A stretch of DNA of 64,000 nt, from NCBI RefSeq assembly GCF_022846255.1, contig NZ_AP025682.1; one strand, written 5' to 3'. The first letter of the stretch is position 1. Each line of letters opens with the position of its first letter. This DNA comes from Escherichia coli (lineage in GTDB: Bacteria; Pseudomonadota; Gammaproteobacteria; Enterobacterales; Enterobacteriaceae). Below are positions 54,949-64,000 of the stretch, in pieces. Position numbers and translations under genes: made by a program. A model generated the notes under the pieces. The model was not told the DNA's origin and made no database searches. It was given only the letters and a program-made list of their open reading frames with translations.

Positions 54949-55839
54949 ATGCGTAAGTTCATTTTCGTATTGCTGACACTGCTTTTGGTCAGCCCTTTTT
55001 CCTTTGCGATGAAAGGTATTATCTGGCAACCACAAAACCGTGATAGTCAGGTTACCGATACCCAGTGGCAGGGGCTGATGAGTCAGTTACGTTTGCAAGG
55101 CTTCGATACCCTGGTTTTGCAATGGACTCGTTACGGCGATGCATTCACCCAGCCAGAACAGCGCGCGTTATTGTTTAAGCGTGCCGCAGCTGCGCAACAG
55201 GCTGGCCTGAAGCTGATTGTCGGGCTGAATGCCGATCCGGAATTTTTTATGCACCAGAAACAGTCGTCTGCAGCGCTGGAAAGCTATCTTAACCGCCTGC
55301 TGGCTGCCGATCTCCAGCAAGCCAGATTATGGAGCGCCGTACCTGGCGTAACGCCGGATGGCTGGTACATCAGCGCGGAAATTGACGACCTGAACTGGCG
55401 CAGCGAAGCCGCCCGTCAGCCTTTGCTAACATGGTTAAACAACGCGCAGCGGTTGATTAGCGATGTTTCAGCAAAACCGGTTTATATCAGTAGTTTTTTC
55501 GCCGGAAACATGTCGCCCGATGGCTATCGCCAACTGCTGGAACACGTTAAAGCAACCGGCGTTAATGTCTGGGTACAGGATGGCAGCGGCGTGGATAAAC
55601 TGACCGCTGAACAGCGTGAACGTTATCTACAGGCCAGCGCCGATTGCCAAAGCTCCGCCCCAGCAAGCGGCATTGTTTATGAACTGTTTGTCGCCGGCAA
55701 AGGCAAAACCTTTACAGCGAAACCGAAACCGGACGCAGAAATTGCCTCGCTGTTAGCGAAACGTTCCTCTTGCGGTAAAGACACGCTCTATTTCTCTCTG
55801 CGCTATTTGCCCGTCGCGCACGGCATTCTCGAGTATTAA
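54949..55839 (+). CDS. ybcH: Periplasmic protein YbcH, third gene of the nfrBA-ybcH operon
   Basis: 296 aa with signal peptide MRKFIFVLLTLLLVSPFSFA; start abuts the nfrA stop. Confidence 0.88.
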   Translation: MRKFIFVLLTLLLVSPFSFAMKGIIWQPQNRDSQVTDTQWQGLMSQLRLQGFDTLVLQWTRYGDAFTQPEQRALLFKRAAAAQQAGLKLIVGLNADPEFFMHQKQSSAALESYLNRLLAADLQQARLWSAVPGVTPDGWYISAEIDDLNWRSEAARQPLLTWLNNAQRLISDVSAKPVYISSFFAGNMSPDGYRQLLEHVKATGVNVWVQDGSGVDKLTAEQRERYLQASADCQSSAPASGIVYELFVAGKGKTFTAKPKPDAEIASLLAKRSSCGKDTLYFSLRYLPVAHGILEY

Positions 55840-56021
55840 ATCTCCTCCAGGTAAGTCGGGTACGACCTGGCTTACCTCTTTCGCTCTCGTCAAAATTCCA
55901 TCAAGATTAATTGCTAAAAAGCGTGCTAAAGAAAGAAGATCGTTATCGGCGAACGGGCCGATCACTCATGCAGGAAGCATAGATCCTTTGAGCGGAGTTT
56001 CTGATATCTGAGGAGTGCGAA

Positions 56022-56783
56022 ATGCAATTGAGCAGCAGTGAACCTTGCGTGGTGATCCTGACCGAAAAAGAGGTAGAGGTAAGCGTCAATAACCATGCTA
56101 CGTTTACCCTTCCGAAAAACTACCTGGCCGCCTTCGCGTGCAACAATAACGTCATTGAACTCTCAACGTTAAATCACGTATTAATCACCCACATCAACCG
56201 TAACATCATCAACGATTATCTGTTGTTTTTAAATAAGAACTTAACCTGTATAAAGCCCTGGTCGCGGCTGGCAACTCCGGTTATCGCTTGTCATAGCCGT
56301 ACACCGGAAGTGTTCCGGCTAGCCGCCAACCACAGCAAGCAGCAACCCAGCAAACCCTGCGAAGCGGAGTTGACGCGCGCATTGCTTTTTACCGTATTGT
56401 CTAACTTTCTTGAGCAATCGCGGTTTATTGCCCTACTGATGTATATCTTACGCAGCAGCGTCCGCGACAGCGTCTGCCGCATTATTCAAAGCGATATTCA
56501 GCATTACTGGAATCTGCGAATTGTCGCCAGTTCGCTATGTTTAAGCCCCAGCCTGCTCAAAAAGAAATTAAAAAACGAAAATACCAGCTATAGCCAGATT
56601 GTCACAGAGTGTCGTATGCGTTACGCCGTACAGATGTTATTGATGGATAACAAAAATATCACTCAGGTGGCGCAATTATGTGGCTATAGCAGCACGTCGT
56701 ACTTTATCTCTGTTTTTAAGGCGTTTTACGGCCTGACACCGTTGAATTATCTCGCCAAACAGCGACAAAAAGTGATGTGGTGA
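56022..56783 (+). CDS. envY: AraC-family transcriptional regulator (envelope porin regulator EnvY)
   Basis: 253 aa; C-terminal AraC HTH (NITQVAQLCGYSSTSYFISVFKAFYGLTPLNYL); position next to ybcH as in K-12. Confidence 0.8.
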   Translation: MQLSSSEPCVVILTEKEVEVSVNNHATFTLPKNYLAAFACNNNVIELSTLNHVLITHINRNIINDYLLFLNKNLTCIKPWSRLATPVIACHSRTPEVFRLAANHSKQQPSKPCEAELTRALLFTVLSNFLEQSRFIALLMYILRSSVRDSVCRIIQSDIQHYWNLRIVASSLCLSPSLLKKKLKNENTSYSQIVTECRMRYAVQMLLMDNKNITQVAQLCGYSSTSYFISVFKAFYGLTPLNYLAKQRQKVMW

Positions 56784-56827: not shown

Positions 56828-56904
56828 TGGCGCGCCCTGCAGGATTCGAACCTGCGGCCCACGACTTAGAAGGTCGTTGCTCTATCCAACTGAGCTAAGG
56901 GCGC
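56828..56904 (-). tRNA. argU: tRNA-Arg (UCU), argU
   Basis: The reverse complement reads GCGCCCTTAGCTCAGTTGGATAGAGCAACGACCTTCTAAGTCGTGGGCCGCAGGTTCGAATCCTGCAGGGCGCGCCA: cloverleaf with TCT anticodon and CCA end. Confidence 0.95.
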
Positions 56905-57145
56905 GTTGATACCGCAATGCGGTGTAATCGCGTGAATTATACGGTCAACCCTTGCTGAGTCAATGGCTTTTGATCTGGTTGCTGAACAAGTGAACGACCG
57001 CGTCTGATTTTCTGATTTATTTCGTTATAGCGGCAAACAAACGCACACCGCTGCGCGTCTGAATCAAGAAAACCCGTATTTTCATGTATCAAGTACAATT
57101 TACCGCCCTAACGGAAAATTGTCCGATCCAATGAGACTGGTAACT

Positions 57146-57778
57146 ATGAAACCAACGTCGGTGATCATTATGGATACTCATCCTATCATCAGAATGTCTA
57201 TTGAAGTTCTGTTGCAAAAAAACAGTGAATTGCAGATTGTCCTGAAAACGGATGATTACCGCATAACCATCGATTATCTCCGAACCCGTCCTGTTGATTT
57301 AATCATTATGGATATAGACTTGCCCGGTACAGACGGTTTTACCTTCCTGAAAAGGATCAAACAAATTCAGAGTACAGTGAAAGTATTATTTTTATCATCG
57401 AAATCAGAATGCTTTTATGCTGGCAGAGCGATACAAGCTGGTGCTAACGGTTTTGTCAGTAAATGCAATGATCAGAATGATATTTTTCATGCCGTTCAGA
57501 TGATCCTCTCCGGATACACTTTTTTTCCCAGCGAAACGCTCAACTATATAAAAAGCAATAAATGTAGTATGAATAGTTCAACGGTCACTGTGCTATCTAA
57601 TCGTGAAGTAACCATATTACGTTATCTGGTTAGCGGATTATCTAATAAAGAAATTGCCGATAAGTTATTACTTAGCAATAAAACAGTTAGTGCACATAAA
57701 TCTAATATTTATGGCAAGCTAGGTTTGCATTCAATTGTAGAGCTTATCGACTACGCCAAATTATATGAATTAATATAA
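57146..57778 (+). CDS. fimZ: LuxR/FixJ-family response regulator controlling fimbrial expression
   Basis: MKPTSVIIMDTHPIIRMSIEVLLQKNSELQIVLKTDDYRITIDYLRTRPVDLIIMDIDLPGTDGF...; C-terminal LuxR HTH; start trimmed to give 210 aa. Confidence 0.92.
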   Translation: MKPTSVIIMDTHPIIRMSIEVLLQKNSELQIVLKTDDYRITIDYLRTRPVDLIIMDIDLPGTDGFTFLKRIKQIQSTVKVLFLSSKSECFYAGRAIQAGANGFVSKCNDQNDIFHAVQMILSGYTFFPSETLNYIKSNKCSMNSSTVTVLSNREVTILRYLVSGLSNKEIADKLLLSNKTVSAHKSNIYGKLGLHSIVELIDYAKLYELI

Positions 57779-57780
57779 TA

Positions 57781-58296
57781 TTAATTATAATTGATCATAA
57801 ATATCGCATCCGCTTTCGCCACACCAGGCTGAACACCGCTGGCTAACGCTCGATAATTGGCAAAAAAGTTTAGTGTGACATTGCCATTTGCATCAACTTC
57901 CTCAGTCGAGCTCGCCTCCCCCAGTGCGAGCCGGGAGCGATCGCTATTACGTAATTCGATGGCGACGGTTTGTGCCATTGCGGGATCATCCAGAGCCAGC
58001 AGGTTGGCATCAGATGCCGGCGTTCCCGTAAATAAAATCGCAACTGAACCCGGAGGACATCCCTCCAGCCGCAGGCTAAAAGGGACGAGTGCCGTGGTAT
58101 CGCCAGCGCTCAGTAATTGTGTCGTAGGCCATCTGCCTAAATCTACCGTCTTATCCTTATCCGCTGTGTTTACGGTACAGGAGAAATCAACAACGTTACC
58201 GTGCAAATTGATATTAATCGTTCCTAAAGGGTCAACTGCCCATCCACTGGAACTCCACAGTAGCCCGCAGAAACAGCTAAAGAGTACTCTTCTCAT
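57781..58296 (-). CDS. sfmF: Fimbrial minor subunit (FimF-like)
   Basis: MRRVLFSCFCGLLWSSSGWAVDPLGTININLHGNVVDFSCTVNTADKDKTVDLG...; fimbrial subunit fold; start trimmed from the track ORF. Confidence 0.88.
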   Translation of the reverse strand: MRRVLFSCFCGLLWSSSGWAVDPLGTININLHGNVVDFSCTVNTADKDKTVDLGRWPTTQLLSAGDTTALVPFSLRLEGCPPGSVAILFTGTPASDANLLALDDPAMAQTVAIELRNSDRSRLALGEASSTEEVDANGNVTLNFFANYRALASGVQPGVAKADAIFMINYN

Positions 58297-58306
58297 TCTC
58301 CGTACC

Positions 58307-59314
58307 TCATTGATAATCGACGCGTAAATACCCCAGCGCGCTAAACGGCCCTTCGGTCGGTTTTTGACCGGTAATACTGATAGGCCAGGCGCGAAGTGTG
58401 ACATTGGCTGCCGCAGCTGCATCCAGACGGAAAGGAATAACGCTATTGAGATCATTAGGCGTGATCGGCGTATCGTTCTGATCGGCCACAATAAAACCTA
58501 AATCCTGATTGTCCGACACCATCGCCTGACCAGAAACGGCGCTGGCTTCCAGACGCATTGTTAAATAAGCCTGCGCAGCAACATTCGTACATTTGATCGC
58601 AATGCTCTTGGTTTGCGGCATGACACCAGCTGGTCGATTCCCCGGCCCTGCCGCACTAAATAACGATGCGCCGATATCACCAAAATCAAATTCAACAATT
58701 TGCCCGGCATTTAATTCGCAGTTTTGCGGTACTTCAACCCGGCCACCAAAACTAATGGTATAAACAGGTGTAACCAACGGATCGTTAGGCGTTGATGTCA
58801 CATACACGGTAAACATCACCTGTCTGGGGATCTCCACCATGTTAATAAAGGGACGAATAACCTTTAAACGAAATATCAAATGAGAATCCATCACCCCGAA
58901 CGGAAGGTTTTGCGAAACGTTAGGATCTGTTCCCATACGAATATAATTTTGCGGAGGGAATTGAATATCCATCACGCTATCAACCAGACTCATCGCACCT
59001 AATAGATAATCATTTAATTGCATATATTTATAATTATCGATAGTTTCCTGAACAATAAAGTTGGTGACATAACTACGGTATGTATAATTCACCAGCGTGC
59101 CGGGTGGACAAATTGCTGATACACCTACCCAGCCGGATTTTTCCGGTAAAACAACAATCTGCCCTGGCTGGTTATTGGGGCTATTAAAGACATTTGAGAG
59201 ATCATAGTGTTCATCTTCTGCTACGCCAGTACTATTTGCACAAACAGTAGCCCAGGATATGTTTGTTAACCACAAACATGCCATCGCCAATAATAATCTG
59301 CAGATTATCTTCAT
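58307..59314 (-). CDS. sfmH: Fimbrial tip adhesin-like subunit (FimH-like)
   Basis: ~327-335 aa with signal peptide and two-domain adhesin/pilin organisation; exact start uncertain. Confidence 0.88.
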   Translation of the reverse strand: MKIICRLLLAMACLWLTNISWATVCANSTGVAEDEHYDLSNVFNSPNNQPGQIVVLPEKSGWVGVSAICPPGTLVNYTYRSYVTNFIVQETIDNYKYMQLNDYLLGAMSLVDSVMDIQFPPQNYIRMGTDPNVSQNLPFGVMDSHLIFRLKVIRPFINMVEIPRQVMFTVYVTSTPNDPLVTPVYTISFGGRVEVPQNCELNAGQIVEFDFGDIGASLFSAAGPGNRPAGVMPQTKSIAIKCTNVAAQAYLTMRLEASAVSGQAMVSDNQDLGFIVADQNDTPITPNDLNSVIPFRLDAAAAANVTLRAWPISITGQKPTEGPFSALGYLRVDYQ

Positions 59315-59326
59315 TGATAATTTCCT

Positions 59327-61936
59327 TTATGAGCCAGGATGTGTGCAAACTGCCGAAATAACAGTGACGGCTTGCTGTAAGCTTTGCTTCGGCAATACAT
59401 AGTGCGCAATGCAGCGTGAGTTCGCGCCGTCTCCCCACTGAACCAGTAATTCACCAGACAATGGCGCACCGCTTAAATAAACTTGCCCGTCATCACCCAC
59501 CATACTGGTTATTCCGGTACTGTTTTCCCGTACCAGTGATCCAAACGGCACCGGTTTTCCGCCCTGGGTAACGGTAATGAGCGCCCGCACGCCTATGCGG
59601 GTATCAAAATTGGCACGAACCAACGCGCCTTGCGTCGGCACAACGCTGCTAATATTTTTTTCAACATCGATGGAATTCCCCATCGTATTGGTATCAAGCG
59701 CGATACGGTTATACCGATAAACCGTGGCATACGGCATCACCGCATAGCCGCGCCAATCGGTTATAATTCCAGTTTGATTTTCAATGCGTACACCGCCTGC
59801 GCCTGGCGCTTTAATCAAAACATTGGTATCCCCTAAAGGCTGGCTCAGCGTTATACCATTTTCATGCCCGACCACACCGCCAGACAGCTGCCAGTTAACG
59901 TCATGTTGATCGCGGTCGTAGTTATACCCGACCCCCAGCGTACCGTAAGCGGCCTGCCAGTTTGCCGTGGCGCTGCCCGTATACCCATTATTCGAGGTAT
60001 CGCCCTGGCTTACGTGATAACTCAGGTTGTGGCCTTCCAGTAAGGTCCCACCAACGCCTGCCAGCCAGCTATTTTGCCCGTTGCTGTTACGGTTGGCGTT
60101 AAAGGAGGCATAAGCGCGGTCGAGCGCATTTTCCCGGGTGTAGCGACGTTTGGTCAGAACATTGAAAGGCACTGAAACATTAAGTCCGACAATACGTTCG
60201 TTATCGGGGATCCCTACAGATTCATTCCACGAAAATGAGAGTGAATAACTGATGTCAACCCAGCTGCTGGTATACCCCACCTGATACCAGGTATCTGAAT
60301 CCGAAGTATTCCAGTATTTTTGATGGGTACCAGAAATATAAAGCGAGCCAAAGTCATTAAGTGATTGTGAAATATTTAACTGCAAACGGTCTTTACGACT
60401 AAAGCGTAAATTGTGGTAATTCACGATTATCGGTTCATCGCGATGCTCACCGTCATAATCGTAATCATATTCGTACCCCTCCATTCGACGATACGCAACA
60501 TCATCAAGGGTATAAAAACCTTGTGTCGAATAGCGGTAACCCATTAACTGAAAATTGGTGCCGAAAGTGTTCATTGATTTCGCATAGAGGAAGCGAATGG
60601 AATCCCCCTCATGACGACTGTCGTCGGCTAACTGACTGCGCGCATGCGTTACATCCAGCGACACTGCGCCCCAGTTCCCGAGGTTGCGCCCCAGCCCTAA
60701 CAAAAAGGCGGTGTAATTTGCAGATAATTGCGTCCCGCCGTAGGCAGTAAATTCCTGTGGTAAACCGCCGAGTGCCGTGCCCTGAAAAAAGAAAGGCGAC
60801 GATTGCTGACTATTACCGCTACGAAAATCGCCCGCCGTCAGCTCAAATTTGAAACGCCCTTCGCGTTGTAAAATTGGCACTGTTGAATACGGAATCGTGT
60901 AATTCTGCTGATTACCATCACGCTCGTCGATGGTGACGTCCAGATCGCCATTTGAAGATGTCGGGTGCAAATCTGTAATTTCAAAAGCGCCGGGGGAAAC
61001 ATAGCTTTGATAGATAATAAAACCATTTTGCCGAATCGTTAGCTGGGCCGCCGTACGGGCAATCCCACGTACCGTTGGAGCAAATCCCTGCTGGCTATCA
61101 GGATACATATTATCGGAAGAATAAAGCCGTACACCTCGAAATCCAACGCCATCGAAAATATCACTCCCTGTATTACCGTCTCCCATTACCAGTTCACTTT
61201 TCAGCGGAATAATGGCGCGCTGTACCCAGGTGCCAATATTATTCCACTGTTCTGAATGATATCCATTTCCGCGAAAATAGTTCCAGGAACCATTGTTGCG
61301 TAAACGCCACGGGCCAATATTAATCCCGCTGAGTTCACTAAAAAAATAGCTATCGTTACCATTACCTCTGTTACCGGTGAAATTATAATTCAGGAGTAAA
61401 GCAGGAATACCTTCATCCCACTCTTCAGGCGGAATATAACCGTGAGCGCTACTCAACAACGCTATCTGAGGAATAGTGATGTTCAGGCGCATCGCTGCAA
61501 AATCAAAGTTAATTGTGGCATCAGGTACAGCTTTCAGTAAATTGATGCATTTATTATTTTGCTGCTGGGCTAACTCGGGGAATGCACTGCTATTAAGGCC
61601 AATTCGTTCAAGGAGTGCCTGGTTAAAACAAGGCATTAACCCACCTGATTTATCACCTGTATTTACTGTCGTCGATTCAAATACGATATCCTGTGAACCA
61701 ATGAACTCATCATTACGCCAGAGATCCACCCGATACACACCCGCAGGTTGATGATTACCTCTCTCAAAGCGCGATAAATCAGCAACGGATGTGCCATTCT
61801 CTAATAAAAATGCCGGGTTGAAATAACTTTCCGCATAGCTTAAAAAGGAGGGTAAAATGGCAAGAGATGAATAACAAATTCCGGCCAGACACCAAGTATA
61901 CCTCTGCGGAATATCCGTAGTAGTGGGTATTTTCAT
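59327..61936 (-). CDS. sfmD: Outer-membrane fimbrial usher
   Basis: 869 aa usher family (PapC/FimD-like). Confidence 0.93.
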
Positions 61937-61966
61937 AATTAGCTCTGATATTGTCAGATGATTCGG

Positions 61967-62659
61967 TTAGTTTAAGTTCACTTCTCTGACCGGGGTTACT
62001 GAACCATAATCATTAACGGTCTGAAATTTCAGCTTTCCCTGCACTCCTGAGGGTAAGGGAATTTGTGAATTAACTCTGGGTGCAGCCATAGCATTCCCCA
62101 GTTTTTGGCTGCCCACTTGCAAGTTAACCAGGGTGACATAAAAAGGTGATGGATTATGAACATTGATATAGTTACCGGATCGCGAAAACTTGAGTGTGTC
62201 CGGCGCTTCTGCGGGTAATTCTTGTAATTGAATTGGACGGAGAAATAATTTCATGCGCGATAAAATCGCCAGTTGCAAAACATTCCTGCCGTTCAATGCA
62301 TTTTTATCTACCGAAGGGATCGTCTTAACATTCATCCAGAACAGAGACTCACGATCTGCCGCCAGCGGTGGACCGGTGTAAATAATACGCAAAGTATTTT
62401 CGCTTTTGGGTTCACTAACAAACAGTGGCGGTGTAATGATGAATGACTTTTCTTTTACACCGCTGCTGTTTTCAATCCACGAATTGACCAGAAAGCGCTC
62501 ATTGGTATGGCTATTTCTAATCCATACCGCAGTCTGTTTAGCATCAGCGGGATAAATAATACGCGTGGCACCTAATGCGATCCCTCCGGCAGCATGGGCG
62601 CTGGCCGAAATGATTAAATAAAATATAATGAGCATCAATAACTTTATTTTAGTCATCAT
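61967..62659 (-). CDS. sfmC: Periplasmic fimbrial chaperone (PapD/FimC-like)
   Basis: 230 aa, [65 protein letters not shown]... Confidence 0.93.
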
Positions 62660-62878
62660 AGTTAATACGCCTTGTGTATTCCTGACGGCAAAAATAAGGA
62701 GTATAAAGAAATGATTGCTTTGGTTTCTTACAACACATCATTCCCTTTTCATTTAATAAAGCGGCATGATACAAAGTGAGCGTGATTTCGATTTACATTG
62801 CCACCATACCGCTTCAGACAACCGGTACATTACTTTGTTATAAGACGTGATATATAATTCAAAACAACGTGGTTTTGA

Positions 62879-63421
62879 TTATTCGTATCTCATAATAAAA
62901 GTCGCGTCAGCATTTGCTTGCCCTGCTGATGCACTTGTACCGGTACCTTTATAACGTGCAGAAAAATGAAGAACGTTGGTCCCGGGGATCAAGTTCTGGT
63001 TGGTTGAGAAGCTATTCCCATCAGGTTTGAGAATTGCGGATGTATTATCAAGTATTTCAATACCGACACCCGTTGCTGTTGTTGTATTAGTACTGGATGC
63101 AATGGCCAATAAATTATCATTGATTGCATCCGCCTGACCAGAAAATGCAACGGCAGCATTAGCGGCAACGACAGGATCGCAGTCGTTCAACTGTATAGTG
63201 AATGGAATTAATGCAGAGGTATTACCAACAGCATTGAAAATATCGGTACGATATTGACCGAGTGTGACAACCTGGTCTGCCGAGTCAGTATTCACTGAAC
63301 AGGCAGCATTCACCAGTTCGCCTTCAAAGTGAATTGTACCGCCATCTACAACGGCAGCATAACTACCCGTAGCGGCGAATAGTGCGGCAGCCAGCGCAGA
63401 CGAAATAAATCTTAATTTCAT
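62879..63421 (-). CDS. sfmA: Type 1-like fimbrial major subunit
   Basis: [57 protein letters not shown]...; start trimmed to give 180 aa. Confidence 0.9.
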
Positions 63422-63892
63422 ATATATTCCTTCAATCTCATTTATCGACTCCACATCCGTATATAACCGATTACTTTATTTAAGACACTGATAGTAGTAA
63501 AATTCCTTTTTATCCTCTAAGAATGTCTTAATTGAAAATATGCACTCTATTCTAAAAAATAGAGAGCCTCGTTAGATGAATATTTCCGCGCAAAATATAT
63601 TCAACACAAATATAGACCTGAAGCGGTAAATTACCAGGCTGAAAATTCTTTTTATATTGTCAGGTATTTCTTAAATTATCTTAATCCTTAGACAAGGAAA
63701 TAAATCAGTTCCAGATTTACAACGTCATCATGGACGAAAAATGAAGCTTTCAATCTCAGCGACGGTGCGCCTCACCTTCGCAAGAGGTCGCTTCACGCGA
63801 TAAATCTGAAACGAAACCTGACAGCGCGCCCCGCTTCTGACAAAATAGGCGCATCCCCTTCGACCTACGTAACAGATGGAATCCTCTCTCTG

Positions 63893-64000
63893 ATGGCAGC
63901 AAAGATTATTGACGGTAAAACGATTGCGCAGCAGGTGCGCTCTGAAGTTGCTCAAAAAGTTCAGGCGCGTATTGCAGCCGGACTGCGGGCACCAGGACTG
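63893..64000 (+). CDS. folD: 5' portion of bifunctional methylenetetrahydrofolate dehydrogenase/cyclohydrolase; continues beyond the window
   Basis: ATG at 63893 followed by [36 protein letters not shown]; K-12 synteny next to sfmA. Confidence 0.85.

Follow-up and report, generated by a model that had tools for sequence, protein, structure and literature searches.

The divergent folD-sfmA spacer of Escherichia coli, probably a composite of a housekeeping promoter and an AT-rich, H-NS-silenced and FimZ-activated fimbrial control region

What does the long divergent spacer between the fimbrial gene sfmA and the housekeeping gene folD of Escherichia coli control, and which of its parts serves which gene? 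We addressed this question in a window of 64,000 nucleotides (the whole stretch of DNA analysed, on contig NZ_AP025682.1). A previous description made from the sequence alone, hereafter the sequence-only reading, had proposed a divergent regulatory region of ~470 bp, and with both start codons checked the spacer indeed measured 471 bp (470 bp in K-12). The identities of sfmA and folD rest on curated NCBIfam models and agree with how RefSeq annotates near-identical genomes, K-12 (b0529/b0530) among them. A long divergent spacer between folD and the fimA/sfmA ortholog (318-579 bp) is kept in Escherichia, Salmonella, Citrobacter, Kosakonia, Trabulsiella, Leclercia, and Lelliottia. All elements of the sequence-only reading held up, apart from refinements to the extent of the folD element and to the share of the AT-rich DNA that is probably transcribed. 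Our analysis indicates that the spacer is likely a composite divergent control region that combines a housekeeping folD promoter with an AT-rich, H-NS-silenced and FimZ-activated sfm promoter region. As a control region it has already been published, and the main facts, an H-NS-bound promoter island and the control of sfm by FimZ, are in print. The locus illustrates in textbook fashion how a housekeeping promoter and a silenced accessory operon can share one spacer, and it has little import beyond annotation. By-products of the analysis are a precise three-part map of the spacer as well as candidate FimZ boxes and a predicted start of sfmA transcription that can be used for reporter design (Table 1).

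Specifically, the spacer consists of an 84-bp folD core, a lineage-specific centre and an AT-rich sfmA side, with GC contents of 0.54 (63809-63892), 0.50 (63721-63808) and 0.30 (63422-63720), respectively. The bounds of 63455..63720 that had been given for the AT-rich part were correct as to composition but too narrow, since the AT-rich stretch continues to the sfmA start codon. The segment 63422-63752 is the most AT-rich 331-bp stretch within the 64-kb window (99.9th percentile), and this is no chance fluctuation. The folD promoter had been placed in the GC-richer part next to folD. A conserved extended -10 element agrees with this placement, but only 63809-63892 represents a conserved folD control element, while 63721-63808 is lineage-specific filler.

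Table 1. Features of the folD-sfmA spacer and its borders, in window coordinates.
Feature	Coordinates	Strand	Basis or remark
Whole divergent folD-sfmA spacer	63422..63892	none	start codons; annotation of K-12 and of the closest genome concurs
sfmA start codon ATG	63421..63419	minus	sequence check
folD start codon ATG	63893	plus	sequence check
Promoter island 557105_351 folD(-)/sfmA(+)	~63401..63752	none	coordinates of PMC3661553 mapped onto the window
sfmA leader, ~180 nt, predicted	63422..63604	minus	six sense-strand GGA motifs
GGA motifs of the sfmA leader	63585-63587, 63513-63515, 63504-63506, 63456-63458, 63450-63452, 63428-63430	minus	63428-63430 lies within the Shine-Dalgarno sequence
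AUAUACGGAUGU in the sfmA leader	63464..63453	minus	sequence check
TCGATAAATG, agreeing with the high-affinity consensus TCGATAAATT of H-NS at 9/10 positions	63439..63448	minus	only suggestive
Imperfect inverted repeat, core TTAAGACA...TGTCTTAA, leader hairpin	63475..63536	minus	two WTTAAGA copies; not conserved in E. albertii
Second small hairpin in the sfmA leader	63542-63567	minus	inverted-repeat and fold analysis
Candidate sfmA -10 hexamer TATATT	63609..63614	minus	aligned with the conserved GTTTAATTTA -10 of Salmonella/Citrobacter; among the minus-strand promoter-like sites of the hexamer scan
Heptad AAAAAGA, candidate proximal FimZ/H-NS box	63647..63653	minus	~-49..-43; homologous to Salmonella ATTAAAAGA at -51..-43
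Heptad TTTAAGA, candidate core FimZ box	63669..63675	minus	~-71..-65; homologous to Salmonella AATAAGA
Heptad ATTAAGA	63679..63685	minus	~-81..-75; E. coli-specific direct repeat, 10 bp upstream of the TTTAAGA box
Lineage-specific GC-richer centre	63721..63808	none	no alignable counterpart in E. albertii, Salmonella, Citrobacter
folD control core, promoter and leader, 84 bp	63809..63892	plus	only spacer part kept in sfm-less E. coli
folD -35 hexamer CTGACA, predicted	63818..63823	plus	consensus scan; ACTGACA invariant in 15 sequences of nine genera
folD extended -10 TGaCAAAAT, predicted	63838..63846	plus	consensus scan flags TG; GCTTCTGACAAAATA invariant in 15 sequences of nine genera
folD leader, ~40 nt, predicted	63853..63892	plus	includes the invariant block ACAGAtGGAATCcTCTCTCTG immediately 5' of the ATG

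The folD core was nearly invariant in an alignment of 15 sequences from nine genera. Its predicted promoter consists of CTGACA, a 17-bp spacer and TG-A-CAAAAT, in agreement with sigma-70 promoters of the extended -10 type (spacer of 16-18 bp, TG one base upstream of the -10), and transcription is predicted to start at about 63853. The distribution of the spacer parts among E. coli genomes shows the same boundary: homology with the sfm-less strain A24 begins exactly at 63809, and the folD end of the spacer was matched in 5,424 of 5,426 genomes, compared with 4,264 that matched its AT-rich part. Where sfm is deleted (~21% of E. coli genomes), the folD core is the sole part of the spacer that is left, and it alone also remains in E. 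coli with an IS1-associated deletion. Because these natural sfm deletions retain only 63809-63892, 84 bp should be enough for folD expression. The core would thus act as a compact sigma-70 promoter driving the housekeeping gene folD, and sequence further upstream would not be needed. A literature search for a mapped start of folD transcription or for a link between PurR and folD returned nothing usable, with 'folD' being confounded with the word 'fold'.

The centre of the spacer, in contrast to the conserved core, appears to be fast-evolving filler without conserved sequence or structure. Within it, many E. coli carry a tandem duplication of a 9-bp unit, CTCAGCGAC (63755-63763), and this duplication accounts for a length difference of 9-10 bp among E. 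coli genomes. About 1,550 genomes fell into a band of 90-95% identity, and the members of this band among the matches listed have spans that are 9 bp longer. A placement of the length difference in the FimZ-box repeat was rejected, since the alignment puts it in the centre. We also rejected a conserved hairpin, insulator or terminator: among 15 taxa the fold z-scores of the centre were mostly within about ±1.2, with outliers in C. koseri (+1.74), Leclercia (+1.63) and C. FP75 (-1.58), and only the folD strand of E. coli reached -2.2. The centre is single-copy in every genome, and because of this the 12-nt inverted repeat that brackets it was treated as a chance occurrence and a mobile or repeated element was dismissed.

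It is very improbable that the centre encodes a product of its own, be it a 20-codon small protein (63741-63803, plus strand) or a small RNA. The open reading frame is intact in four E. coli variants that differ by two synonymous changes, one Ile to Val exchange and one in-frame 9-bp duplication, but a repeat unit of 9 bp cannot shift the frame, and with three substitutions the pattern is statistically meaningless. Moreover, neither E. albertii nor any other genus compared has the frame, and its sole Shine-Dalgarno-like sequence is a weak GGA. The small ORF was rejected as unconserved outside E. coli and too little variable for testing. For a small RNA one could cite the mildly stable fold of the folD strand mentioned above, but stable structure is not conserved across genera, the centre carries no annotation in K-12 and other RefSeq records, and Rfam gave no match. 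In a permissive Rfam scan of 62600-64000 the best scores were 10-17 bits compared with gathering scores of 40-100, with E-values >4. Finally, the entire centre is deleted, with folD retained, in the same ~21% of genomes.

The same deletions bear on the origin of the sfm cluster. The cluster is a positional ortholog of Salmonella fim, located between folD and tRNA-Arg (PMC3604780), and outside E. coli we found the synteny folD - fimA-type operon - tRNA-Arg at 23 loci in eight genera. Panyukov and Ozoline (PMC3661553) proposed that the cluster and its AT-rich promoter region were acquired horizontally from Salmonella. Such a transfer would fit the AT-richness of the DNA, its foreign character according to several predictors (Table 1 of that paper) and its patchy occurrence in E. 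coli, being absent from B2 (PMC3604780) and from 21% of the genomes (present in 4,264/5,426). However, gene order is identical in the eight genera and the spacer could be aligned from end to end. The sfm-less E. coli have a deletion-like structure, with the argU flank kept to position 57008 and rejoined at 63809; between flank and junction, 35 bp weakly match an internal part of fimZ. An IS1-mediated partial deletion was also seen. We regard the transfer as rather unlikely. Both the synteny in eight genera and the form of the deletions favour ancestry with later loss, and repeated loss of a vertically inherited cluster is simpler than acquisition.

The AT-rich part of the spacer is one of 78 published promoter islands of K-12 (Table 1 entry 557105_351 folD(-)/sfmA(+) and Fig. 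7 of Panyukov and Ozoline 2013, PLoS One 8:e62601; PMC3661553), and it was published as such because of its extreme AT content and its many promoter-like sequences, which overlap one another. We mapped the island onto the window by alignment with MG1655 and an offset of +777 that we infer between U00096.2 and NC_000913.3. In a crude hexamer scan, which is not equivalent to PlatProm, 63422-63752 contained 14 promoter-like sites against a window mean of 1.7 (99.9th percentile) and 36 -10-like hexamers against a mean of 10.7, both being the top values of the 64-kb window. The scan agreed with the definition of an island, a segment of 300 bp or more in which potential transcription start points are exceptionally dense on both strands. 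A consensus promoter scan of the spacer detected no minus-strand promoter at the threshold used. In vivo binding of H-NS at the island was reported by ChIP-chip (code K, Kahramanoglou MG1655 and Oshima W3110; PMC3661553), together with at least two H-NS modules for the spacer and with binding of RNA polymerase that yields little full-length RNA and short abortive products; the same paper compares the island directly with Salmonella folD-fimA. Our own match to the H-NS consensus near the sfmA start codon is only suggestive, because matches with one mismatch are not enriched across the window (7 compared with 4.45 expected). The statement of the sequence-only reading that sfm is little expressed under laboratory conditions is in line with its description as a cryptic, H-NS-repressed operon (Korea 2010, as cited in PMC5797941). 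H-NS coating the AT-rich sfmA side would keep productive sfm transcription off in the laboratory.

Regulation of sfm by FimZ, also named in that reading, is backed by the report that FimZ activates sfm in K-12 (Ogawa 2022), which is curated in RegulonDB, and by the position of fimZ itself inside the window (57119-57778, NCBIfam model). The fimA promoter of Salmonella enterica was described with a FimZ footprint from -98 to -47 that contains H-NS-type AAGA elements, and with Lrp motifs (Yeh 2002; Baek 2011, PMC3203922). Our promoter numbering on S. arizonae reproduces the published coordinates of the Lrp and H-NS motifs. In the region homologous to the footprint, the TTTAAGA and AAAAAGA heptads of E. 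coli align with AATAAGA and TAAAAGA of Salmonella. Five genera (E. coli, Salmonella, all Citrobacter, Kosakonia and Trabulsiella) share a WWTAAGA heptad at a distance of 254-274 nt upstream of the start codon, followed 22 nt downstream by a second box, AAAAG; in E. albertii the boxes are degenerate. WTTAAGA occurs four times in the spacer compared with 0.5 expected copies (P = 0.001), two of them belonging to the inverted repeat of the leader and not to the upstream region.

Other elements of the Salmonella promoter have been lost. The distal box AAAATAAGA (-100..-92) and the upstream half-site TTCTTAT were not found in E. coli, which lacks ~75 nt present in Salmonella and Citrobacter, and neither the conserved -10 GTTTAATTTA of these two genera nor the Lrp motifs at -35..-20 are retained. 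At the aligned positions E. coli has GGTCTATATTTG and ...GGTAATTTACC..., with TATATT available as a substitute -10, and a start of sfmA transcription near 63600-63604 on the minus strand is predicted by homology. Because E. coli is strongly diverged from Salmonella here, the true FimZ site and start of transcription could differ from this prediction. The motif search for FimZ, H-NS and Lrp sites that had been recommended revealed AAGA heptads at the FimZ footprint position; the H-NS consensus is unenriched and the positions of the Lrp motifs are not kept. A search of the spacer for a strict CRP palindrome gave no hit. The suggestion that silencing and activation sites reside in the AT-rich part is supported by the published H-NS-bound island and by the heptads, except that ~180 nt of this part are probably sfmA leader. 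FimZ, an orphan response regulator encoded at the far end of the cluster, would most likely bind the AAGA heptads from ~-81 to -43 (63647-63685), and from there it would act on a weak promoter (-10 near 63609-63614), either by bringing in RNA polymerase or by displacing H-NS.

The AT-rich part might instead be purely a promoter island, an array of many overlapping promoter-like sites that evolved as a platform and in which RNA polymerase is trapped in abortive cycles and H-NS is recruited, with no dedicated activator site and with FimZ acting indirectly. This is the model that was proposed for exactly this spacer (PMC3661553), and it draws on the highest density of promoter-like sites in the window and on the loss in E. 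coli of most sequence common to the Salmonella and Citrobacter fimA promoters. However, two AAGA boxes still lie where the Salmonella FimZ footprint would place them, 22 nt apart as in Salmonella, although the surrounding sequence is heavily diverged, and FimZ is kept in the cluster and reported to induce sfm transcription. We consider an island devoid of any activator site to be quite unlikely. Silencing and FimZ-dependent anti-silencing on the same DNA are compatible and not exclusive, and the combination of both remains our preferred reading.

Many fimbrial operons are expressed in a phase-variable manner. The type 1 fimbriae of E. coli are controlled by an invertible promoter segment, fimS, and pap by a Dam/Lrp methylation switch. 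Several short inverted repeats in the spacer, such as 63708-63719 with 63801-63812, could recall a switch of the fimS type. They are, however, only 8-12 nt long, a size expected by chance, and the segment within the 12-nt pair was found in one orientation and as a single copy in ~4,300 genomes. Furthermore, no recombinase gene adjoins the spacer, whose neighbours are sfmA/sfmC and folD/ybcJ. For a pap-like switch, not one GATC site is present anywhere in the 471-bp spacer. The Salmonella fimA promoter is likewise described as having no invertible element (PMC3203922). A hidden phase-variation switch of either type is thus extremely improbable, and we rejected it in view of the lack of GATC, the lack of an adjacent recombinase gene and the single orientation across genomes.

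The predicted sfmA leader raises the further possibility of post-transcriptional control. None of its GGA motifs has a counterpart on the opposite strand, which is free of GGA (no TCC on the sense strand). In the alignment of three genera no variation is seen in the GGA at 63456-63458 or in the Shine-Dalgarno sequence, and the distances of the GGA motifs from the sfmA ATG match those in Salmonella, Citrobacter, Kosakonia and Trabulsiella. The enrichment of GGA in the E. coli leader was significant against mononucleotide shuffles (P = 0.006) but weaker against dinucleotide shuffles (0.07-0.08), and the motifs are worth mentioning only because of this positional conservation across genera. The larger of the two leader hairpins carries two GGA near its apical part; it is unconserved in E. 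albertii, and the fold of the whole leader did not differ significantly from that of shuffled sequences (z = -1.1). Conservation of the leader GGA motifs suggests, by analogy with Salmonella, that CsrA might bind at sfmA. The sfmA transcript would carry a leader of ~180 nt in which the conserved GGA motifs, one of them in the ribosome-binding site, may permit CsrA binding. That this leader is a CsrA-binding RNA conserved across Enterobacteriaceae, with the AUACGGAUGU site at a position invariant in three genera, we put forward as a tentative and still doubtful proposal. If it is true, any relief of H-NS silencing in E. coli would place the translation of sfmA under the control of CsrA. The sfm transcript could also titrate CsrA, and a fimbrial operon regarded as 'cryptic' would be connected with the global Csr network.

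The closest known counterpart of this leader is the 5'UTR of Salmonella fimAICDHF, which titrates CsrA (Sterzenbach 2013, as cited in PMC6844306 and PMC6347204). It is orthologous to the sfmA leader and of similar length, has several sense-strand GGA at matching distances from the ATG with one of them in the Shine-Dalgarno sequence, and both leaders contain a ACGGAUGU / ACAGGAUG-type site. Otherwise the sfmA leader is strongly diverged and more AT-rich than that of Salmonella fimA. Since sfm is normally silent, any titration of CsrA would occur only after de-repression. E. coli K-12 is not known to carry a pef operon that could be the downstream target.

The promoter region as a whole is best compared with PfimA of Salmonella, which is found at the same place between folD and the major subunit gene, with fimZ likewise present in the cluster. 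Both have AAGA heptads at about -71 and -49 and a long leader of 180-200 nt. In contrast to Salmonella, E. coli does not have fimI, nor fimY and fimW: argU (56828-56904) and fimZ are only 214 bp apart, with no ORF of at least 90 aa between them. Its spacer is richer in AT and falls short of that of Salmonella by ~75 bp, and the direct repeat ATTAAGA-N3-TTTAAGA takes the place of the TTCTTAT...AATAAGAA of Salmonella and Citrobacter. The island 557105_351 of K-12, on the other hand, is the same DNA. The AT-rich part is ~98.5% identical to that of a K-12-labelled genome and aligns from end to end with MG1655, and extreme AT content and density of promoter-like signals are common to K-12 and the strain of the window, with differences limited to a few point changes and a 1-bp indel, nothing substantive. 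An AT-rich upstream region, repression by H-NS and poor expression in the laboratory are shared by sfm with the other cryptic chaperone-usher operons of K-12 that were reported as H-NS-silenced (yad, yeh, elf/ycb and others; Korea 2010), and yadN, yehD and elfA are also listed as promoter islands (Table 1 of PMC3661553). Unlike these operons, sfm has a dedicated activator of the response-regulator type, FimZ, encoded within its own cluster, and the gene on the other side of its spacer is an essential one with a housekeeping role.

The spacer between sfmA and folD (63422-63892, 471 bp) is a long divergent intergenic region, as the sequence-only reading had described it. NCBIfam equivalog models identified SfmA as a Salmonella-type FimA subunit and likewise confirmed FolD. 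In the K-12 RefSeq annotation folD (b0529) and sfmA (b0530) are divergent with a gap of 470 bp that contains no annotated feature, and 701 bases around the spacer match 5,424 of 5,426 complete E. coli genomes (best match 99.9% identical). GC content is 0.30 on the sfmA side (63422-63720), 0.50 in the centre (63721-63808) and 0.54 in the folD-proximal core (63809-63892). The 331 bp from 63422 are the most AT-rich stretch of the 64-kb window and also top it in -10-like hexamers and promoter-like hexamer pairs (99.9th percentile each); this extreme position shows that the composition is real and not a chance fluctuation.

The region is nothing new in kind and is already known. Panyukov and Ozoline (PLoS One 2013, PMC3661553) list '557105_351 folD(-)/sfmA(+)' among 78 K-12 'promoter islands', which are AT-rich, covered by H-NS and extremely dense in predicted start points, and where RNA polymerase is bound and short abortive products are made while full-length RNA is scarce. 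That H-NS covers this island is supported by ChIP-chip data from Kahramanoglou and from Oshima, and Figure 7 of the same paper compares the spacer with Salmonella folD-fimA (PMC3661553). Via K-12 alignment the island falls at approximately 63401-63752, a mapping that rests on an inferred coordinate offset of +777. This published island bears out the proposal that silencing resides in the AT-rich part. The claimed silence of sfm agrees with its place among the cryptic chaperone-usher operons that H-NS represses (Korea 2010, as cited in PMC5797941), and the claimed control by FimZ with the FimZ dependence of sfm induction reported for E. coli K-12 (Ogawa et al. 2022; curated in RegulonDB v12). 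Overall, the interpretation as silencing, FimZ activation and a folD promoter in the GC-richer part is supported, and we consider it very probable that the spacer is a composite of a folD promoter, a centre and an sfmA promoter region with leader. The compact, conserved folD promoter would be self-sufficient, the centre would be neutral and fast-evolving, and the AT-rich sfmA promoter region, whose H-NS occupancy and FimZ dependence are known from the literature, would carry a long GGA-rich leader. Boundaries, composition, conservation and the end of the deletion are shown by the sequence comparisons; both starts of transcription, the exact FimZ boxes and CsrA binding are predictions. A pap-type Dam switch is excluded since the spacer has no GATC site, and a fimS-type invertible element because there is no adjacent recombinase gene and inverted repeats are only 8-12 nt long. 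The spacer region gave no match to any Rfam family.

Genes and candidate promoter elements in and near the folD-sfmA spacer
Feature	Coordinates	Strand	Relative position	Remark
fimZ	57119-57778			product confirmed as FimZ by NCBIfam equivalog model
sfmA start	63421	minus		protein MKLRFISS...
Candidate sfmA -10 TATATT	63609-63614	minus		occupies homologous -10 position
Candidate box AAAAAGA	63647-63653	minus	~-49..-43	
Candidate box TTTAAGA	63669-63675	minus	~-71..-65	
Candidate box ATTAAGA	63679-63685	minus	~-81..-75	E. coli-specific
Predicted folD -35 CTGACA	63818-63823	plus		sigma-70 consensus scan
Predicted folD extended -10 TGaCAAAAT	63838-63846	plus		sigma-70 consensus scan
folD start	63893	plus		protein MAAKIIDGK...

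A search with SfmA in species-representative genomes returned 31 loci. Outside the species E. coli, folD is found upstream of the fimA/sfmA ortholog and in divergent orientation to it in 23 loci, which come from Escherichia, Salmonella, Citrobacter, Kosakonia, Trabulsiella, Leclercia, Lelliottia and Phytobacter; the 17 spacers measured are 318-579 bp long. Alignment divides the spacer into three parts, namely the folD core, the centre and the AT-rich sfmA side. The core (the last 84 bp) is almost invariant in nine genera and contains ACTGACA, a spacer of 17 bp and GCTTCTGACAAAATA, after which ACAGAtGGAATCcTCTCTCTG adjoins the ATG. This conservation, together with the sigma-70 promoter found by consensus scan, supports the view that the GC-richer part holds the folD promoter; transcription is predicted to start at approximately 63853, giving a leader of 40 nt.

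Natural deletions would delimit this promoter. In sfm-less strains such as A24 only 270 bp separate tRNA-Arg (argU) from folD. The argU flank is kept up to 57008 and homology to the window restarts exactly at 63809, which marks out, at the level of sequence, a deletion of ~57009-63808 that took fimZ and sfmFHDCA together with 387 bp of the spacer and spared the 84-bp core. In a second class of genomes an IS1-associated deletion ends near 63773. folD is essential in K-12, and the deletion genomes therefore indicate that the core would be sufficient for folD expression. sfm-less E. coli (A24, L002 3815-4084) keep ~104 bp of the argU-fimZ spacer, followed by ~80 bp of poorly matching sequence including a 35-bp, 83% match to the inside of fimZ (window 57322-57356), possibly a scar of the deletion. 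Across this junction PGAP has called a minus-strand hypothetical protein of 65 aa that overlaps the folD promoter; the call is probably spurious.

Some further features were seen around the core. Just upstream of the folD -35 (position of window 63803-63818), Salmonella (ACACAAACGTTAACTG), Citrobacter (ACGCAAACGAAAACTG) and Kosakonia (CCGCAAACGGTAACTG) carry sequences (loci L015, L016, L007, L025) resembling the PurR operator, whose consensus is ACGCAAACGTTTTCNT; the E. coli counterpart, approximately TCTGAAACGAAACCTG, is degenerate. In these three genera, though not in E. coli, folD may be purine-repressed. The folD start codon is overlapped, as TGATG, by a mini-ORF of five codons, ATGGAATCCTCTCTCTGA (MESSL*, 63876-63893). 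This mini-ORF is not kept as such, since C. koseri, C. werkmanii and Lelliottia have ACG in place of its ATG; the surrounding block is invariant in nine genera. folD has no well-placed Shine-Dalgarno sequence, the only GGA lying ~12 nt upstream and being followed by a CU-rich tract.

Nothing aligns with the centre even in E. albertii, and it has no stable hairpin conserved across genera. E. coli genomes differ in length here by 9 bp, owing to a tandem duplication of CTCAGCGAC (63755-63763) that is seen in strain H3; as the duplication sits in the centre, a length polymorphism in the regulator boxes was rejected. A 90-95% identity band contains approximately 1,550 of 4,299 E. coli genomes, with spans 9 bp longer among the matches listed, consistent with this duplication; a lower band of 147 genomes may hold further copies. 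Four E. coli variants have an intact 20-codon ORF (63741-63803, plus strand); they differ by two synonymous substitutions, one replacement of Ile by Val and the in-frame 9-bp duplication. Variation is sparse, and neither E. albertii nor the more distant genomes have the ORF, which probably arose by chance. The 81-nt E. coli-specific centre is flanked by the two arms of a 12-nt inverted repeat (63708-63719 GTTCCAGATTTA / 63801-63812 TAAATCTGAAAC, 11/12 complementary), the right arm containing the sfm-less deletion junction at 63809. The repeat is probably also due to chance, since the bracketed segment is single-copy in every genome.

The AT-rich side, present in only 4,264 of 5,426 E. coli genomes, keeps patches that resemble the promoter and leader of fimA in Salmonella and Citrobacter. 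In Salmonella the FimZ site spans -98..-47 from the fimA start of transcription, with AAAATAAGA at -100..-92, ATTAAAAGA at -51..-43 and Lrp motifs at -35..-28 and -31..-20 (Baek et al., PMC3203922). When S. arizonae was numbered by hand from ATTAAAAGA, both Lrp motifs and the distal box landed at the published positions, and we therefore trust the homology mapping. In E. coli, Salmonella, every Citrobacter, Kosakonia and Trabulsiella a WWTAAGA heptad precedes the ATG by 254-274 nt, with a second box, AAAAG, 22 nt downstream of the heptad. The AT-rich part holds four WTTAAGA copies versus 0.5 expected (P = 0.001); two of them form a leader inverted repeat (63475-63536) and are not upstream sites. 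The exact E. coli FimZ boxes are candidates that we infer from sequence. In contrast to Salmonella and Citrobacter, neither the -10 GTTTAATTTA nor the TTCTTAT half-site nor the Lrp motifs are conserved in E. coli. Because TATATT lies at the -10 position, the sfmA start of transcription is predicted at 63600-63604, with a leader of ~180 nt. Between the two conserved AAGA boxes (63653-63665) the sfmA strand reads ACCTGACAATATA, a reverse-complement echo of the folD -35 ACCTGACA and -10 CTGACAAAATA (63816-63847; inverted repeats I3 and I7), which may be an extra promoter-like site of the island or chance.

The predicted leader contains six GGA and no TCC on the sense strand (P 0.006 against mononucleotide shuffles, 0.07-0.08 against dinucleotide shuffles). 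Taken alone this enrichment is weak; the pattern recurs across genera, with 5-9 sense GGA (3 in E. albertii) versus 0-3 TCC in orthologous leaders. Positions from the ATG are -94, -85, -37, -31 and -9 in E. coli and ~-98, -49, -39, -32, -26 and -8 in other genera; among Escherichia, Salmonella and Citrobacter the alignment does not vary at the GGA of 63456-63458 (AUACGGAUGU) or at the GGA of the Shine-Dalgarno sequence. As a whole the leader folds no better than shuffled sequence (z = -1.1). Because titration of CsrA has been documented for the RNA of the Salmonella fimAICDHF leader (Sterzenbach 2013, cited in both PMC6844306 and PMC6347204), CsrA binding by the E. coli leader would be a reasonable extension.

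The E. albertii spacer (L006, 2078-2500; 423 bp) has ATTTAGG and AAAAAGT at the aligned box positions, no exact AAGA boxes and only three leader GGA motifs; its sfm promoter may be decaying. In the window strain, argU (anticodon tct; region 56828-57118) is followed directly by ORFs at 54949-56783 with lengths matching envY and ybcH, as it is in strain 44; the DLP12-type prophage present at argU in K-12 is absent. Salmonella fim is the positional ortholog of sfm, which phylogroup B2 lacks (PMC3604780). Contrary to the literature, we consider vertical inheritance followed by loss more likely than acquisition from Salmonella, because of the eight-genus synteny and the deletion-like structure of sfm-less strains. 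The sfmA-sfmC gap (62660-62878) is 219 bp long and AT-rich, and genomic SELEX placed an RpoH-holoenzyme peak in it (PMC5493296). At this place Salmonella and Citrobacter carry a second subunit gene, fimI, which is missing from E. coli sfm. Nor does E. coli have the fimY and fimW of Salmonella, the argU-fimZ gap being only 214 bp. Compared with Salmonella PfimA, the sfm system appears to work in the same way, in a reduced and diverged version.
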